A DNA stretch of 64,000 nt, from assembly GCF_056712565.1 (NCBI RefSeq), contig NZ_CM160072.1; one strand, 5' to 3'. This document shows positions 347 to 57,209 of this stretch, piece by piece. A program made the translations under genes and the position numbers. Under the pieces are notes generated by a model. That model saw nothing but the letters and a program-made list of their open reading frames with translations, was not told the DNA's origin and did no database searches. Position 1 is the first letter of the stretch; each line of letters begins with the position of its first letter.

Positions 347-811
347 ATGGAAAAGAAATTACCCCGCATTAAAGCGCTGCTAACCCCCGGCGAAGTGGCG
401 AAACGCAGCGGTGTGGCGGTATCGGCGCTGCATTTCTATGAAAGCAAAGGGTTGATTACCAGTATCCGTAATAGCGGCAATCAGCGGCGATATAAACGTG
501 ATGTGTTGCGATATGTCGCAATTATCAAAATTGCTCAGCGTATTGGCATTCCGCTCGCAACCATTCGTGAAGCGTTTGGCGTGTTGCCAGAAGGGCATAC
601 GTTAAGTGCGAAAGAGTGGAAACAGCTTTCGTCCCAATGGCGAGAAGAGTTGGATCGGCGCATTCATACCTTAGTGGCGCTGCGTGACGAACTGGATGGA
701 TGTATTGGTTGTGGCTGCCTTTCGCGCAGTGATTGCCCGTTGCGTAACCCGGGCGACCGATTAGGAGAAGAAGGTACCGGCGCACGCTTACTGGAAGATG
801 AACAAAACTAA
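347..811 (+). CDS. soxR: SoxR, MerR-family redox-sensing [2Fe-2S] transcriptional activator
   Basis: 154-aa ORF with N-terminal MerR helix-turn-helix and C-terminal [12 protein letters not shown] cysteine cluster. Confidence 0.95.
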
Positions 812-945
812 AGCGCCACAAGGGCGCTTTAGTTTGTTTTCCGGTCTTTGTCTTTCTCTCTATCCCGCTGGTACACAGGAGGGTTTCCCCCGACGTCAAC
901 ACACCTCATTCGAGCACGTGGTGGAGGTTCCGGTTGGTGTTGATG
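800..945 (-). ncRNA. ryjA: Possible RyjA small RNA, placed by synteny only
   Basis: In K-12 a roughly 140-nt sRNA is annotated antisense and overlapping the soxR 3' end; I cannot verify its sequence from memory, so the coordinates are approximate. Confidence 0.3.
810..840. terminator. Stem-loop directly after the soxR stop codon (AAAGCGCC/GGCGCTTT, loop ACAAG), possible bidirectional terminator
   Basis: 8-bp perfect stem at 810-817/823-830 followed by a T-rich tract on the plus strand. Confidence 0.5.
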
Positions 946-1357
946 CTTTAATTGTATGTTACCGGCGTTTCTTCGCCAGTGTAAAAGTACACTTTTTAGC
1001 CGCAATATTTTTGTCATCTCAGACGATTTTTTATCGCAATCCTGAACGGTATACGGCTCGATAACGCTGCAATCTTGCGCATCGACGATAACGTTTGCGC
1101 ATCAATTGCCTGGTTTTTCATCGTCAAGACAATAAAAGAGAAAAAAGCAGCAAACTTCGGTTGAAAAAGCCGCTATGATCGCCGGATAATCGTTTGCTTT
1201 TTTTACCACCCGTTTTGTATGCGCGGAGCTAAACGTTTGCTTTTTTTGCGACGCAGCAAATTGTCGCAAACCTGGAGCAGGAAGATAACGTTTCGCTGGC
1301 AGGGGATTGTCCGCCACGCATCTTGACGAAAATTAAACTCTCAGGGGATGTTTTCTT

Positions 1358-2707
1358 ATGTCTACGCCATCAGCGCGTACCGGCGGTTCACTCGACGCCT
1401 GGTTTAAAATTTCACAACGTGGAAGCACTGTCCGTCAGGAAGTGGTTGCCGGGTTAACAACGTTTCTGGCGATGGTCTACTCGGTTATCGTCGTTCCAGG
1501 CATGCTGGGTAAAGCGGGCTTCCCGCCTGCGGCAGTTTTCGTTGCAACCTGTCTGGTTGCCGGACTCGGTTCTATCGTGATGGGTCTGTGGGCTAATCTG
1601 CCGTTGGCGATTGGTTGCGCCATCTCTCTGACGGCGTTTACCGCATTCAGTCTGGTGCTGGGGCAACATATTAGCGTACCTGTCGCGCTGGGTGCCGTGT
1701 TCCTGATGGGTGTGCTGTTTACGGTAATTTCTGCCACGGGTATCCGTAGCTGGATTTTGCGCAACTTGCCGCACGGTGTGGCGCACGGCACGGGGATTGG
1801 TATCGGTCTGTTCCTGCTGCTGATTGCTGCTAATGGTGTCGGTCTGGTGATTAAAAACCCACTTGATGGTCTGCCCGTCGCGCTGGGGGATTTCACGACC
1901 TTTCCGGTGATGATGTCGTTGGTGGGGCTGGCAGTGATTATCGGCCTGGAAAAACTGAAAGTCCCTGGTGGCATTCTGCTGACCATTATCGGTATCTCAA
2001 TTGTCGGTTTGATCTTCGATCCTAACGTCCATTTCTCCGGCGTTTTCGCCATGCCTTCATTGAGCGATGAAAACGGCAATTCACTGATTGGCAGCCTGGA
2101 CATTATGGGTGCGCTGAATCCTGTAGTCCTGCCAAGTGTTCTGGCACTGGTGATGACGGCAGTATTTGATGCCACCGGAACTATCCGTGCCGTCGCCGGT
2201 CAGGCGAACCTGCTGGATAAAGATGGGCAGATCATCGACGGCGGGAAAGCACTGACCACCGACTCCATGAGCAGCGTTTTTTCTGGCCTCGTGGGTGCAG
2301 CTCCGGCAGCGGTATACATCGAGTCTGCGGCGGGTACGGCGGCGGGCGGTAAAACCGGTTTGACGGCTATCACCGTTGGCGTGCTGTTCCTGCTGATTCT
2401 GTTCCTCTCTCCGCTCTCTTACCTCGTTCCGGGGTACGCAACGGCTCCGGCGCTGATGTACGTTGGCCTGCTGATGCTGAGCAACGTGGCGAAAATCGAC
2501 TTTGCTGATTTTGTTGATGCGATGGCGGGTCTGGTTACGGCGGTATTCATCGTGCTGACCTGTAACATCGTAACAGGCATCATGATTGGCTTCGCGACTC
2601 TGGTGATTGGTCGTCTGGTTTCCGGCGAATGGCGCAAGTTGAACATCGGTACGGTCGTTATTGCCGTGGCGCTGGTGACCTTCTATGCGGGTGGCTGGGC
2701 TATCTAA
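1358..2707 (+). CDS. ghxP: Guanine/hypoxanthine permease, NCS2/AzgA-like family
   Basis: 449-aa polytopic membrane ORF at the K-12 yjcD position downstream of soxR. Confidence 0.85.
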
Positions 2708-2857: not shown

Positions 2858-4507
2858 ATGGAAATCTTCTTCACCATACTGATAATGACCCTCGTGGTCT
2901 CGCTGTCCGGGGTGGTCACTCGTGTCATGCCCTTTCAGATCCCGCTTCCGCTTATGCAAATCGCCATCGGTGCGCTACTGGCGTGGCCGACGTTTGGTTT
3001 GCATGTGGAGTTTGATCCTGAACTCTTTTTAGTCTTGTTTATCCCGCCGTTGCTGTTCGCTGATGGCTGGAAAACGCCGACCCGTGAATTTCTCGAACAT
3101 GGGCGAGAGATTTTCGGCCTCGCGCTGGCGCTGGTGGTGGTCACCGTGGTCGGCATTGGCTTCCTTATTTACTGGGTGGTGCCGGGCATTCCGCTGATCC
3201 CCGCCTTTGCGCTGGCTGCGGTGCTTTCTCCGACCGATGCTGTAGCGCTCTCCGGGATTGTTGGCGAGGGGCGCATCCCGAAAAAAATCATGGGCATTTT
3301 GCAGGGCGAAGCGTTGATGAATGACGCCTCCGGCCTGGTGTCGTTGAAGTTTGCCGTGGCAGTGGCGATGGGGACAATGATCTTCACCGTCGGCGGTGCG
3401 ACGGTCGAATTTATGAAAGTGGCAATAGGCGGTATTCTCGCCGGTTTTGTGGTGAGCTGGCTGTATGGTCGCTCGCTGCGATTCCTCAGCCGCTGGGGCG
3501 GTGATGAACCCGCGACGCAGATCGTTCTGCTGTTCTTGCTGCCATTCGCTTCTTATCTGATTGCGGAACATATTGGCGTTTCCGGCATCCTCGCTGCGGT
3601 TGCCGCCGGGATGACCATCACCCGCTCCGGTGTGATGCGCCGTGCGCCGCTGGCAATGCGCCTGCGCGCAAACAGCACCTGGGCGATGCTGGAATTTGTC
3701 TTTAACGGCATGGTGTTCCTGCTGTTAGGTCTGCAGTTGCCGGGGATTCTGGAGACGTCGCTGATGGCGGCAGAAATCGACCCTAACGTCGAAATCTGGA
3801 TGCTGTTTACCGATATTATTCTGATATATGCGGCGCTGATGCTGGTCCGTTTCGGCTGGCTGTGGACGATGAAAAAGTTCAGCAACCGCTTCCTGAAGAA
3901 GAAGCCGATGGAGTTTGGTTCGTGGACTACACGAGAAATCCTGATCGCGTCTTTCGCCGGGGTGCGTGGGGCGATCACTCTGGCCGGTGTGCTCTCTATC
4001 CCGCTTCTCTTGCCGGATGGTAACGTCTTCCCTGCGCGCTATGAGTTGGTGTTCCTGGCGGCTGGCGTCATTCTCTTCTCATTGTTTGTCGGCGTGGTGA
4101 TGTTGCCTATTCTGCTACAACACATAGAAGTCGCGGACCATTCGCAACAATTGAAAGAGGAACGTATTGCACGAGCGGCAACGGCAGAAGTGGCGATTGT
4201 GGCGATCCAGAAAATGGAGGAGCGTCTGGCGGCGGATACCGAAGAGAATATCGATAACCAGCTGCTCACAGAGGTTAGTTCTCGCGTCATTGGTAACCTG
4301 CGTCGTCGCGCCGATGGACGTAATGATGTAGAAAGTTCAATCCTGGAAGAGAACCTGGAGCGTCGCTTCCGTCTGGCGGCATTGCGTTCTGAACGTGCTG
4401 AACTGTACCACCTGCGCGCCACGCGGGAGATCAGTAACGAAACGCTGCAAAAATTACTGCACGATCTCGATTTGCTTGAAGCGTTGCTGATTGAGGAAAA
4501 TCAGTAA
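2858..4507 (+). CDS. yjcE: Putative Na+/H+ exchanger, CPA1 family
   Basis: 549-aa membrane ORF with a charged C-terminal cytoplasmic domain; synteny. Confidence 0.85.
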   Translation: MEIFFTILIMTLVVSLSGVVTRVMPFQIPLPLMQIAIGALLAWPTFGLHVEFDPELFLVLFIPPLLFADGWKTPTREFLEHGREIFGLALALVVVTVVGIGFLIYWVVPGIPLIPAFALAAVLSPTDAVALSGIVGEGRIPKKIMGILQGEALMNDASGLVSLKFAVAVAMGTMIFTVGGATVEFMKVAIGGILAGFVVSWLYGRSLRFLSRWGGDEPATQIVLLFLLPFASYLIAEHIGVSGILAAVAAGMTITRSGVMRRAPLAMRLRANSTWAMLEFVFNGMVFLLLGLQLPGILETSLMAAEIDPNVEIWMLFTDIILIYAALMLVRFGWLWTMKKFSNRFLKKKPMEFGSWTTREILIASFAGVRGAITLAGVLSIPLLLPDGNVFPARYELVFLAAGVILFSLFVGVVMLPILLQHIEVADHSQQLKEERIARAATAEVAIVAIQKMEERLAADTEENIDNQLLTEVSSRVIGNLRRRADGRNDVESSILEENLERRFRLAALRSERAELYHLRATREISNETLQKLLHDLDLLEALLIEENQ

Positions 4508-14987: not shown

Positions 14988-16670
14988 TTGTTGTTAAGTC
15001 TCGGGGTCAACGTGTTGACCCCGTTGACGGCCTTCGCGGGAGTGCGGTTGCGCTGGCCTGCCATGATGCGACTCACTTGCATCGGCATTCTGGCGCAGTT
15101 CGCGCTCCTGCTGCTCGCCTTTGGCGTACTGACGTATTGTTTTCTCATCAGCGATTTCTCGGTCATTTATGTCGCCCAACATAGCTATAGCCTGCTGTCG
15201 TGGGAACTCAAACTGGCGGCGGTGTGGGGCGGTCATGAAGGTTCGCTGCTGCTTTGGGTGCTGCTGCTTTCCGCCTGGAGCGTGCTGTTTGCCTGGCATT
15301 ATCGACAGCAAACCGATCCGCTATTTCCGCTCACGTTAACGGTTTTATCGCTGATACTTGCCGCACTGCTGCTGTTTGTTGTCGGATGGTCCGATCCTTT
15401 TGTGAGGATATTTCCGCCCGCAATAGAAGGGCGCGATCTCAATCCGATGCTGCAACATCCCGGTCTTATCTTTCATCCACCGCTGCTTTATCTCGGCTAC
15501 GGCGGTTTGATGGTGGCGGCGAGCGTGGCGCTGGCGAGTTTACTGCGCGGCGAGTTTGGTGGTACCTGCGCCCGAATTTGCTGGCGTTGGGCACTACCTG
15601 GCTGGAGCGCATTAACAGCGGGGATCATCCTCGGTTCCTGGTGGGCCTATTGCGAACTGGGCTGGGGCGGCTGGTGGTTCTGGGATCCGGTGGAAAACGC
15701 GTCGTTATTACCCTGGCTTTCTGCCACAGCGCTGCTGCACAGTTTATCCCTGACACGCCAGCGGGGGATTTTCCGCCACTGGTCGCTGTTGCTGGCGATA
15801 GTAACTCTGATGCTGTCGCTGCTGGGCACCTTAATTGTCCGTTCTGGCATTCTGGTTTCGGTTCATGCGTTCGCGCTGGATAACGTCCGCGCCGTGCCGT
15901 TGTTCAGCCTGTTTGCACTGATTAGCCTTGCGTCTCTGGCTCTGTATGGCTGGCGAGCGCGGGACGGTGGCCCGGCGGTGCGTTTTTCGGGGTTATCGCG
16001 GGAAATGTTAATCCTCGCTACGCTGTTGCTGTTTTGCGCAGTGCTACTGATCGTGCTGGTGGGAACGCTTTATCCGATGATTTACGGCCTGCTGGGCTGG
16101 GGACGCCTCTCCGTTGGCGCGCCGTATTTTAACCGCGCGACGTTACCGTTTGCTCTGTTGATGCTGGTGGTGATTGTGCTGGCGACGTTTGTCTCTGGCA
16201 AACGTGCTCAGCTTCCGGCGCTGCTGGCGCATGCGGGCGTGCTGTTATTTGCCGCGGGGATCGTGGTTTCCAGCGTCAGCCGTCAGGAGATCAGCCTGAA
16301 TTTACAGCCGGGTCAGCAGGTGACGCTGGCAGGATACACCTTCCGTTTTGAGCGCCTCGATCTGCAAGCCAAAGGCAATTACACCAGTGAAAAAGCGATA
16401 GTGGCACTGTTTGACCATCAGCAACGCATTGGTGAATTAACGCCGGAGCGGCGTTTTTACGAAGCACGTCGTCAGCAAATGATGGAACCGTCAATTCGCT
16501 GGAATGGCATCCATGACTGGTATGCGGTCATGGGCGAGAAAACCGGAGCGGATCGTTACGCTTTTCGTTTGTATGTACAAAGCGGTGTGCGCTGGATCTG
16601 GGGGGGAGGATTGTTGATGATTGCGGGCGCATTGTTAAGCGGATGGCGGGGAAGGAAGCGCGATGAATAA
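14988..16670 (+). CDS. nrfE: CcmF-like haem lyase for the NrfA CXXCK site
   Basis: Large polytopic membrane ORF with WGGWWFWD tryptophan-rich motif; start uncertain (non-ATG start at 14988, alternative GTG at 15009). Confidence 0.9.
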   Translation: MLLSLGVNVLTPLTAFAGVRLRWPAMMRLTCIGILAQFALLLLAFGVLTYCFLISDFSVIYVAQHSYSLLSWELKLAAVWGGHEGSLLLWVLLLSAWSVLFAWHYRQQTDPLFPLTLTVLSLILAALLLFVVGWSDPFVRIFPPAIEGRDLNPMLQHPGLIFHPPLLYLGYGGLMVAASVALASLLRGEFGGTCARICWRWALPGWSALTAGIILGSWWAYCELGWGGWWFWDPVENASLLPWLSATALLHSLSLTRQRGIFRHWSLLLAIVTLMLSLLGTLIVRSGILVSVHAFALDNVRAVPLFSLFALISLASLALYGWRARDGGPAVRFSGLSREMLILATLLLFCAVLLIVLVGTLYPMIYGLLGWGRLSVGAPYFNRATLPFALLMLVVIVLATFVSGKRAQLPALLAHAGVLLFAAGIVVSSVSRQEISLNLQPGQQVTLAGYTFRFERLDLQAKGNYTSEKAIVALFDHQQRIGELTPERRFYEARRQQMMEPSIRWNGIHDWYAVMGEKTGADRYAFRLYVQSGVRWIWGGGLLMIAGALLSGWRGRKRDE

Positions 16671-54980: not shown

Positions 54981-57209
54981 ATGTACACACAGACCCTGTA
55001 TGAGTTAAGTCAGGAGGCTGAACGCCTGTTACAGCTTTCTCGCCAACAGTTGCAGTTACTGGAAAAAATGCCTCTCTCTGTACCCGGAGACGATGCGCCA
55101 CAACTGGCTTTACCCTGGAGTCAGCCTAATATCGCCGAACGTCACGCGATGCTGAATAATGAGTTGCGTAAAATTTCCCGACTGGAAATGGTGCTGGCGA
55201 TTGCCGGTACTATGAAAGCAGGGAAATCAACCACCATTAATGCCATTGTTGGTACGGAGGTTCTGCCTAATCGCAATCGCCCAATGACTGCGCTGCCAAC
55301 GCTTATTCGCCATACGCCCGGGCAAAAAGAACCGGTACTGCATTTTTCACATGTCGCGCCAATCGACCATTTAATTCAACAATTACAACAGCGCCTGCGT
55401 GATTGCGATATTAAGCATCTGACCGATGTGCTGGAAATAGATAAAGATATGCGTGCGCTTATGCAGCGGATTGAAAATGGCATCGCTTTCGAAAAATATT
55501 ATCTGGGTGCTCAACCTATTTTTCATTGTCTGAAAAGTTTGAATGATTTGGTGCGACTGGCGAAGGCGCTGGACGTCGATTTTCCTTTTTCTGCTTACGC
55601 CGCCATTGAGCATATTCCCGTGATTGAAGTGGAGTTTGTCCATCTGGCGGGGCTGGAGAGTTATCCCGGTCAGTTGACGTTACTGGATACCCCCGGGCCA
55701 AATGAAGCCGGGCAACCGCATCTGCAAAAAATGCTTAACCAGCAGCTGGCACGCGCCTCGGCGGTACTGGCGGTGCTGGATTATACGCAACTGAAATCGA
55801 TCTCCGATGAAGAGGTCCGTGAGGCAATTTTGGCGGTGGGGCAATCGGTGCCGTTGTATGTGCTGGTCAATAAGTTCGATCAACAGGATCGTAACAGTGA
55901 CGACGCCGACCAGGTGCGGGCACTGATTTCCGGAACGCTGATGAAAGGCTGTATTACGCCACAGCAGATATTTCCGGTGTCGTCGATGTGGGGCTACCTG
56001 GCGAATCGGGCGCGCCATGAGTTAGCCAACAACGGTAAGTTACCACCGCCAGAGCAACAACGCTGGGTGGAAGATTTTGCCCATGCCGCGCTCGGCAGGC
56101 GCTGGCGTCATGCCGATCTGGCGGACCTCGAACATATTCGCCATGCTGCCGATCAGTTGTGGGAAGATTCGCTGTTCGCCCAGCCAATTCAGGCGTTGCT
56201 TCATGCCGCTTACGCTAACGCCTCGTTGTATGCTCTGCGATCTGCCGCGCATAAACTGTTGAATTACGCGCAGCAGGCGCGGGAATACCTGGATTTTCGT
56301 GCGCACGGGTTAAACGTCGCTTGTGAACAATTGCAGCAAAATATCCATCAGGTCGAAGAAAGTTTGCAGCTATTGCAACTCAATCAGGCGCAGGTGAGCG
56401 GCGAGATTAAACATGAAATCGAGTTGGCCCTGACCTCCACCAACCACTTTCTGCGTCAACAGCAAGATGCGGTGAATGCGCAGTTAGCCGCGTTGTTTCA
56501 GGATGATTCGGAGTCGTTAAGTGAGATGCGTACCCGCTGTGAGACACTGTTACAGACGGCGCAGAACACCATCAGTCGCGACTTTACGCTGCGCTTTGCC
56601 GAGCTTGAGTCCACCCTTTGCCGGGTGTTAACCGATGTTATTCGCCCCATTGAGCAACAAGTCAAAATGGAATTGAGTGAGTCTGGGTTTCGTCCTGGGT
56701 TTCATTTTCCTGTTTTTCACGGCGTAGTTCCCCACTTCAACACCCGCCAGCTGTTCAGCGATGCAATATCCCGTCAGGAAGCAACGGATGAGCAGATCAC
56801 CCGTTTTGGCGTTGTGCGTGAGATTTTTTCGCGCTGGTTGAATCAGCCCGACTGGGGACGGGGAAATGAGAAATTCCCGACAGAGACGGTTGATTACAGT
56901 GTGTTGCAACGAGCATTAAGCGCAGAAGTCGATCTTTATTGCCAACAAATGGCTAAAGTTATGGCAGAGCAGGTCGATGAATCTGTTACGGCAGGCATGA
57001 ATACTTTTTTCGCTGAGTTCGCTTCATGTTTGACGGAATTACAGACGCGTTTACGCGAAAGTCTGGCTCTGCGTCAACAAAATGAATCCGTGGTCAGGCT
57101 GATGCAACAGCAATTGCAGCAGACTGTGATGACTCACGGCTGGATTTACACCGACGCTCAGCTGTTACGCGATGATATTCAAACACTTTTCACGGCAGAA
57201 CGATATTGA
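54981..57209 (+). CDS. crfC: Dynamin-like GTPase, clamp-binding sister replication fork colocalization protein
   Basis: 742-aa ORF with P-loop GTMKAGKST and dynamin-like DTPG motif. Confidence 0.9.
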   Translation: MYTQTLYELSQEAERLLQLSRQQLQLLEKMPLSVPGDDAPQLALPWSQPNIAERHAMLNNELRKISRLEMVLAIAGTMKAGKSTTINAIVGTEVLPNRNRPMTALPTLIRHTPGQKEPVLHFSHVAPIDHLIQQLQQRLRDCDIKHLTDVLEIDKDMRALMQRIENGIAFEKYYLGAQPIFHCLKSLNDLVRLAKALDVDFPFSAYAAIEHIPVIEVEFVHLAGLESYPGQLTLLDTPGPNEAGQPHLQKMLNQQLARASAVLAVLDYTQLKSISDEEVREAILAVGQSVPLYVLVNKFDQQDRNSDDADQVRALISGTLMKGCITPQQIFPVSSMWGYLANRARHELANNGKLPPPEQQRWVEDFAHAALGRRWRHADLADLEHIRHAADQLWEDSLFAQPIQALLHAAYANASLYALRSAAHKLLNYAQQAREYLDFRAHGLNVACEQLQQNIHQVEESLQLLQLNQAQVSGEIKHEIELALTSTNHFLRQQQDAVNAQLAALFQDDSESLSEMRTRCETLLQTAQNTISRDFTLRFAELESTLCRVLTDVIRPIEQQVKMELSESGFRPGFHFPVFHGVVPHFNTRQLFSDAISRQEATDEQITRFGVVREIFSRWLNQPDWGRGNEKFPTETVDYSVLQRALSAEVDLYCQQMAKVMAEQVDESVTAGMNTFFAEFASCLTELQTRLRESLALRQQNESVVRLMQQQLQQTVMTHGWIYTDAQLLRDDIQTLFTAERY

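Follow-up and report, generated by a model that had tools for sequence, protein, structure and literature searches.

Escherichia coli purR and purB each carry a PurR box within transcribed DNA, where bound repressor is expected to act as a roadblock, an operator arrangement reportedly described by Rolfes and Zalkin 1990 and He et al. 1992. A box of this kind also lies in the predicted leader of ghxP (yjcD), the guanine/hypoxanthine permease gene near the start of the E. coli DNA analysed here, a stretch of 64,000 nt (the window; NCBI RefSeq assembly GCF_056712565.1, contig NZ_CM160072.1). Like ghxP, purR combines strong and weak operators: its two boxes score 22.5 and 10.1 bits under the matrix used for ghxP and lie 88 bp apart. 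The two-operator layout of purR and the intragenic operator of purB are both noted in the chromatin immunoprecipitation-microarray (ChIP-chip) study of Cho 2011 (PMC3159470). Unlike purR and purB, ghxP combines a weak box with two strong ones, has one box far upstream (at about -104.5 from the predicted transcription start), and has a leader box that probably doubles as a strand of an RNA helix.

The transporter genes xanP, adeP (yieG) and uacT belong to the same regulon and were detected in the same ChIP-chip study. Like ghxP, each has a pair of boxes scoring 10 bits or more, spaced within about 100 bp (680 bp for ygfT/uacT). The paired boxes score 18.9 and 12.5 bits at xanP, 20.3 and 12.0 bits at adeP, and 16.1 and 19.0 bits at ygfT/uacT. 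A first-pass annotation of the window had called multiple sites unusual; this does not hold, as purR, xanP, adeP and ygfT/uacT all have two boxes at or above 10 bits. What sets ghxP apart among the compared loci is that only there do two boxes exceed 18 bits, accompanied by a weak one, while the other transporter promoters pair one strong box with one weak box.

Two further systems offer an analogy for the distant box. The gal operators OE and OI take part in a GalR/HU loop, which is built by a dimeric LacI-family repressor. At gal, as at carAB P1 with its remote PurR box, an operator about 100 bp from the promoter works only in a stereospecific assembly, and the invariant 99-bp spacing at ghxP is reminiscent of this geometry. 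Unlike carAB and gal, ghxP has no identified site for a helper protein, and the likeness is one of analogy only. Cho 2011 (PMC3159470) mentions that several proteins together control carAB.

On the RNA side, the closest described systems are the guanine riboswitches of Bacillus subtilis pbuG and xpt-pbuX. Like the ghxP leader, they place a structured three-helix RNA before a hypoxanthine/guanine permease gene. Unlike them, the ghxP leader matches no Rfam family at E <= 10, purine and xanthine riboswitches included. The size and arrangement of its helices differ as well, and ghxP control is demonstrably exerted by a protein repressor. We consider it probable that the ghxP region is a PurR-controlled unit made up of a conserved sigma-70 promoter, two strong flanking operators and a weak box overlapping the promoter, with the third PurR-like motif being a strand of an RNA helix.

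Two strong PurR boxes precede ghxP

We scanned the whole 64 kb (127,970 positions) with a position weight matrix derived from the ChIP-chip table of Cho 2011, using its 27 PurR motifs other than the ghxP entry, which was excluded against circularity. The training sites span 12.2-25.5 bits. The best match in the window is site 2 (AGCTAAACGTTTGCTT, 1227-1242, + strand), with 19.3 bits (p = 1.9e-7 per position and strand, as for all p values here). Site 1 (ACGATAACGTTTGCGC, 1085-1100, + strand) ranks second with 18.6 bits (p = 3.3e-7). Both scores fall inside the range of ChIP-supported sites, and about 0.02-0.12 matches as strong as these are expected per 64 kb. Both sequences are 16-bp imperfect palindromes with a central CpG, in agreement with the PurR operator ACGNAAACGTTTGCNT.

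Site 3 (AAGATAACGTTTCGCT, 1282-1297, + strand) scores 7.2 bits and ranks 28th (p = 1.3e-4). The window contains 28 matches of this strength and 16-29 are expected, which is chance level. The heptamer AACGTTT occurs 16 times in the window (9.9 +/- 3.5 expected) and at three distinct positions within a 204-bp stretch of the region upstream of ghxP. The cluster of PurR boxes is far beyond chance, and it owes this to two strong sites, not three.

The first-pass annotation had placed three such motifs upstream of a guanine/hypoxanthine permease gene. The three strings are present at these positions (GCGCAAACGTTATCG, the reverse complement of 1086-1100; GCAAACGTTTAGC, the reverse complement of 1228-1240; ATAACGTTTCGC, 1285-1296 on the + strand), and the gene is ghxP by 100% identity to RefSeq. 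That the first two motifs are good PurR matches is borne out by their ranks in the scan and by their conservation in 80 species. The proposed cluster of three stands for sites 1 and 2 and falls for site 3, which scores no better than chance and lacks conservation as a PurR box. Missing from that annotation was a weaker, fourth box (GGATAATCGTTTGCTT, 1184-1199, + strand; 10.3 bits, p = 3.4e-5).

Elsewhere in the window, the next-best matches are ACGTTACCGTTTGCTC (13.2 bits) and ACGGCACCGATTGCCC (12.7 bits), at 16140-16155 and 55839-55854. These scores lie in the range of the weakest ChIP motifs, and about 1.7 such matches are expected per 64 kb by chance. A further AACGTTT lies at 1459-1465 within the ghxP coding sequence, about 100 bp past the start codon, and scores below 7 bits as a PurR box.

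PurR regulation of ghxP, and each of the three motifs, is already reported. The ChIP-chip region ryjA/yjcD (4,275,855-4,276,485) corresponds to window positions 710-1340, and its motif is site 1; its log2 enrichment of 2.08 with adenine is the table maximum, and no enrichment was seen without adenine (Cho 2011, PMC3159470). ghxP belongs to the PurR-1 iModulon, with its motif at the same position as site 1 (Sastry 2019, PMC6892915); site 1 is identical both to the ChIP-chip motif for ryjA/yjcD and to the ghxP entry in Supplementary Table 4 of Sastry 2019. Expression of ghxP is repressed by adenine (PMC6892915, PMC8376909), adenine- and PurR-dependent repression is described in Rodionova 2021 and Kozmin 2013 (PMC8376909, PMC3809563), and a 4-fold drop with HAP together with PurR-dependent repression is cited in PMC3809563. 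The suggestion that a PurR box here reflects purine-repressed expression agrees with this published occupancy and repression. Additional file 3 of Elmas 2015 lists site 2 at -130 of yjcD among the sites shared with RegPrecise; the same paper proposes site 3, at -76 (score 7.6), as a "novel" PurR site found by computation only. We found no paper that treats the three ghxP motifs together.

A candidate promoter block with fixed spacing

To follow the boxes across species, we used the 80 ghxP loci closest to that of the window, taken from one scan of species-representative genomes. These represent 80 species of Enterobacteriaceae, ranging from Escherichia to Buttiauxella, Cedecea and Mangrovibacter. 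In 79-80 of the 80 species, site 1, site 2 and the box at 1184-1199 are kept with unchanged orientation; sites 1 and 2 are each found in all 80, site 2 with scores of 11.6-21.4 bits.

Between sites 1 and 2 lies a candidate sigma-70 promoter for ghxP (1161-1190, + strand), with a -35 hexamer TTGAAA (1161-1166), an 18-bp spacer and a -10 hexamer GATAAT (1185-1190). Ten of its 12 promoter positions match, and it is the sole promoter-like site on the + strand in 780-1420. Among the 80 distinct sequences, 73 retain the -35 sequence TTGAAAA and 79 retain GATAATCGTTTGC, with the offset fixed. This promoter match would place the ghxP transcription start at about 1196-1198. Relative to this predicted start, site 1 would be centred at about -104.5 and site 2 would span about +31 to +46 (centre about +38).

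The weak box GGATAATCGTTTGCTT (1184-1199) overlaps both the -10 hexamer and the predicted start. Its 10.3 bits are below the weakest ChIP motif (12.2 bits) and close to the known purR O2 operator (10.1 bits, same matrix); in species with AGATAAT it reaches 13.4 bits. The seven bases right after the -10 hexamer, CGTTTGC, match the right half-site of PurR and recur in 79 of 80 sequences. Because these bases are invariant and match the half-site, we treat 1184-1199 as a candidate operator.

Spacing further ties site 1 to this promoter. In 79 of 80 distinct sequences, exactly 99 bp separate the centres of site 1 and the 1184-1199 box, despite only moderate conservation of the sequence between site 1 and the promoter (1102-1160). 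Between the -10 box and site 2 the spacing varies from 42 to 156 bp, because several genera have insertions there.

The ChIP-chip label ryjA/yjcD invites the reading that site 1 serves the small RNA gene sraL (ryjA), not ghxP. In E. coli, sraL lies on the - strand (804-944) with a promoter-like site at 985-956, and site 1 is 141 bp upstream of its 5' end. Across genera, however, this distance spans 141 bp (E. coli) to about 890 bp, most genera having a GST-like gene inserted there, whereas the distance from site 1 to the ghxP -10 box stays at 99 bp in 79 of 80 sequences. The variable spacing on one side and the fixed spacing on the other argue that site 1 is part of the ghxP promoter block, and we rejected a dedicated role at sraL as highly improbable.

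The inserted GST-like open reading frame encodes about 225 aa on the ghxP strand and ends about 75 bp before site 1 (for example at 1420-2112 in L047 and 1487-2155 in L007, as labelled in the comparative set). Escherichia and Citrobacter werkmanii are without it, and there sraL is 141-162 bp from site 1.

Several smaller features accompany the block. The element TTGCGCAT (1075-1082, + strand) duplicates the right end of site 1 (1095-1102) exactly, 20 bp upstream, and its TTGCGCA is at least 95% conserved (81 sequences); it is not a PurR box, because both the central CG and the left half are missing. At 1191-1205 and 1234-1248, 43 bp apart, lies a near-exact direct repeat, CGTTTGCTTTTTTT(A/G). 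A run of seven T follows both the -10 box and site 2, and is conserved across genera only after site 2. When all columns of the indel-free block 1055-1214 were compared with one another, no run of stacked covarying pairs emerged; inverted repeats are visible there by eye in some genera and are inconsistent.

Three other readings of the block were considered and dropped. A promoter at site 1 on either strand would need a conserved -35/-10 pair with workable spacing, and none is present. A CRP-like reading of the conserved TGTTGC...TTGCGCA gives a poor half-site match. Reiterative transcription at the T-run just past the start (1199-1205) is disfavoured, as this run is conserved in only a few genera.

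A structured RNA domain in the predicted ghxP leader

Downstream of the conserved candidate promoter, we identified a structured domain of the predicted leader, 103 nt long (1219-1321, + strand) with helices P1 to P4 and a three-way junction. P1 pairs 1219-1226 with 1314-1321, P2 pairs 1227-1237 (site 2) with 1287-1297 (site 3), the P3 hairpin pairs 1247-1252 with 1263-1268, and P4 pairs 1304-1305 with 1311-1312. In the E. coli leader fold, site 2 pairs with site 3 around the inner hairpin. RNAalifold on 72 sequences adds the long-range closing helix, and 12 of 16 pairs show compensatory changes. Minimum-free-energy folds from six genera recover P1, P2 and P3 in all cases, with z-scores of -0.4 to -3.7.

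Covariation supports this model. Across its 26 pairs, 93.2% of cells are paired, compared with 31-53% when partners are slid by 1-3 columns. Two measures described as robust to relatedness exceed their shuffled controls: 14 leader pairs change on both sides (6.1 +/- 1.4 in shuffles; 0 of 500 as high), and extra pair types number 41 (31.9 +/- 1.6; again 0 of 500). The bulk of the covariation is in P1, where five of seven pairs change on both sides, and in P3, where all six do. P2 is 90% paired (22-46% with the partner slid), and its pair 13-89 covaries strongly (U-A 31, C-G 24, U-G 12). G-U cells outnumber A-C cells by 154 to 39, which places the structure on the ghxP sense (+) strand.

Insertions, as in Buttiauxella and others, are confined to internal loops or lie outside the domain, and the distance of the domain to the start codon is fixed. 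Nearly invariant unpaired nucleotides include GGCAG (1298-1302) and a AGCACAGGGAGAU-like internal loop. An Rfam 15 scan of 780-1420 at E <= 10 returned only sraL (804-944) and no family for the leader domain, and we found no paper that links yjcD/ghxP to a riboswitch in enterobacteria. The paralogue ghxQ provides no leader of its own for comparison, because it sits inside the xanQ-guaD-ghxQ operon, 35 bp past guaD.

The two strands of P2 evolve differently. Mean entropy is 0.15 bits on the site 2 strand and 0.70 bits on its partner, which tolerates mismatches. A difference of this kind would be expected if, besides RNA pairing, a sequence-specific constraint at the DNA level acted on one of the two strands.

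This asymmetry bears on the idea that only site 1 works as an operator, with site 2 kept for RNA structure, the -10 box kept for the promoter, and the PurR likeness of both incidental. Cho 2011 and Sastry 2019 give site 1 alone, the RNA model can pair the whole of site 2, and a -10 box would be conserved as a promoter regardless. Yet site 2 is the best match in 64 kb (19.3 bits, p = 1.9e-7), lies 130 bp upstream of a PurR-repressed gene, and is far more conserved than its RNA partner. The CGTTTGC after the -10 hexamer is likewise an invariant PurR right half-site, and a lone site at about -104.5 would be poorly placed for repression. It is very unlikely that a 19-bit match before a PurR-repressed gene is accidental; site 2 is thus unlikely to be merely an RNA element, and we regard the idea of a single working operator as quite improbable.

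We also evaluated an attenuator in which the palindromic site 2 and its T-run form a terminator hairpin that is blocked by pairing with site 3. The sequence AGCUAAACGUUUGCU followed by U6-7 is conserved, and alternative pairings exist. Against this, a terminator scan of 780-1420 found no terminator on the + strand, and the local stem is weak and A-U rich, with a 3-nt loop and one mismatch. Site 3 is downstream and thus unable to compete during transcription, and the U-run sits in an internal loop of the consensus model. We rejected the attenuator as scarcely credible.

The P1-P4 domain may be an undescribed cis-regulatory RNA of the Enterobacteriaceae ghxP leader. In this reading a metabolite, a protein or a small RNA would act through it on translation or on the stability of the mRNA, and the 16 bases of site 2 would be read both as DNA, in a PurR operator, and as RNA. 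We put this forward tentatively, as a possibility on the doubtful side. The fixed distance to the invariant ribosome-binding site (UCAGGGGAUG, 1341-1350) hints, speculatively, at control of translation or stability. Equally speculative candidates for anti-Shine-Dalgarno segments are a CCCC loop in P3 and UGUCCAC at 1308-1314.

Of 72 leaders, 43 have CCCC in the P3 loop (1253-1262) and 57 have CCC, complementary to the invariant AGGGG of the ribosome-binding site. The loop has CAGC in typical E. coli, including K-12 and the window, and CCCC in a divergent E. coli and in E. albertii. GGA motifs occur at 1274-1286 (GCACAGGGAGAU in most genera, GGAGCAGGAAGAU in E. coli) and at the ribosome-binding site (UCAGGGGAUGU, 1341-1350). 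The CsrA consensus is RUACARGGAUGU, which both GGA motifs appear to resemble.

The leader is lengthened in Klebsiella, Raoultella, Kluyvera, Pluralibacter, Pseudocitrobacter and Superficieibacter by insertions of 45-110 bp between the -10 box and P1 (affected loci include L029, L032, L040, L042, L044, L047, L056 and L075). Some of these insertions contain strong G+C-rich hairpins, and the P1-P4 domain is left intact. A small leader open reading frame starting from ATG 1219 in E. coli was discarded, as this ATG is not conserved and indels are not multiples of three.

Site 3 as a probable helix strand

Site 3 differs from sites 1 and 2 in score and in conservation. It scores below every training site of the matrix and is without the TTGC half-site. 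In 72 distinct leaders, the best PurR scores of the site 3 region have their median at -3.7 bits and peak at 9.5, such that none reaches 10. By score and by cross-species conservation, site 3 does not behave as a PurR operator, and its ACGTTT core is conserved despite these poor scores. Positions 1287-1297 are more likely the 3' strand of P2, the RNA partner of site 2, than an operator. The partner of site 2 looks like a PurR box because the PurR core AAACGTTT is self-complementary, which is most likely why the first-pass annotation and Elmas 2015 both saw a third site.

The first-pass annotation, and for the -76 site also Elmas 2015, imply the alternative that all AACGTTT-centred motifs, site 3 included, are true PurR operators, forming an array of three or four that jointly represses ghxP. 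Independent selection by Elmas 2015 (-76, score 7.6), the conserved ACGTTT core and a good left half-site in E. coli all speak for it, as does the low score (10.1 bits) of a working operator, purR O2. These points are outweighed by a score of 7.2 bits, for which 16-29 matches are expected per 64 kb, and by the median of -3.7 bits over 72 species with 0 reaching 10. The absence of TTGC, nearly invariant in real sites, and covariation of the variable flank with site 2 as an RNA pair point the same way. We therefore judge an operator array that includes site 3 to be unlikely, and treat site 3 as a helix strand.

A model for PurR control of ghxP

With site 3 assigned to the RNA, the favoured reading of two strong operators and a weak promoter box suggests the following scheme. 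When hypoxanthine or guanine is plentiful, PurR-corepressor dimers would occupy the boxes. Binding at 1184-1199, over the -10 box and start, would block RNA polymerase binding, and binding at the leader box (site 2, about +38) would form a roadblock, as at purB and purR. The upstream box (site 1, about -104.5), in fixed register with the promoter, might strengthen occupancy in some stereospecific way. The matrix scores, the conservation, the fixed spacing and the covariation are shown here, and published work shows PurR occupancy of the region in vivo and PurR- and adenine-dependent repression; we infer the role of each single box, the transcription start and any function of the RNA domain.

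The helical repeat of DNA in vivo is about 11 bp, as seen in ara and lac looping studies, and the 99-bp register thus corresponds to about nine turns. Site 1 and the -10 box show the fixed, helically phased spacing of a lac- or gal-type loop (99 bp, 79 of 80 sequences). PurR is a dimer without the tetramerisation helix of LacI, and is not known to form higher-order assemblies, bridge operators, loop DNA or bind cooperatively. We do not classify the region as a repression loop because the PurR dimer has no known bridging ability and no helper site was identified.

Several observations weigh against parts of the favoured scheme. Every position relative to +1 derives only from the conserved consensus match to a promoter, and ChIP-chip is too coarse to tell which boxes are occupied. 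Cooperative action of the site at -104.5 would need an assembly that PurR dimers are not known to form. E. coli site 3 retains a good left half-site, AGCGAAAC on the - strand, and may bind PurR weakly in this species. Complementarity of the cores is automatic between any two sequences containing AAACGTTT, and covariation in P2 comes essentially from one pair (13-89), which could reflect few evolutionary events. Finally, all six single-sequence folds pair the invariant TGC of site 2 with a conserved AGCA, and RNA constraints could explain part of the conservation of site 2.

Genomic context

The first 4.5 kb of the window cover the soxS-soxR-sraL-ghxP-yjcE region of E. coli, with gene order the same as in K-12 MG1655; the MG1655 annotation is empty between ryjA and ghxP. 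The regulated gene, ghxP, occupies 1358-2707 (+ strand, 449 aa). It corresponds to K-12 b4064, and its open reading frame is 100% identical to RefSeq genes named guanine/hypoxanthine transporter GhxP. Its start codon (1358-1360) and the ribosome-binding AGGGGA (1343-1348) lie in an invariant region on the + strand, and CAGGGGA at the ribosome-binding site is practically invariant (72 sequences). In the list of open reading frames, soxR is at 347-811 and yjcE at 2858-4507.

The small RNA sraL (804-944, - strand) was identified by Rfam (RF01408, 153 bits). The 3' end of soxR overlaps sraL, and the two share a terminator hairpin (805-835). The promoter-like site of sraL is at 985-956 on the - strand.

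We found the 546-bp soxR-ghxP spacer in 5420 of 5426 complete E. coli genomes. The ghxP leader is single-copy in these 5420 genomes, with no second copy in E. coli. One locus in the comparative set, L001 (JAEWQV010000038.1), is a 2.9-kb contig labelled 'MAG: Bacillota bacterium' that encodes a 100% identical GhxP protein behind a nearly identical upstream region. Almost certainly, this contig came from E. coli and was binned wrongly with that metagenome-assembled genome.

Implications

The PurR part of this analysis adds little to what is published, and the one new lead is an unannotated, covarying leader structure with an embedded operator. The locus also offers a warning for motif scanning. 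When a palindromic operator is transcribed as part of a leader, any RNA segment that pairs with it will resemble a further site, and the reported -76 site is probably such an echo. If the leader RNA is regulatory, it would add a post-transcriptional layer to the control of purine salvage in a clade without purine riboswitches. It would also be a rare case of a sequence constrained both as a repressor operator and as an RNA helix.

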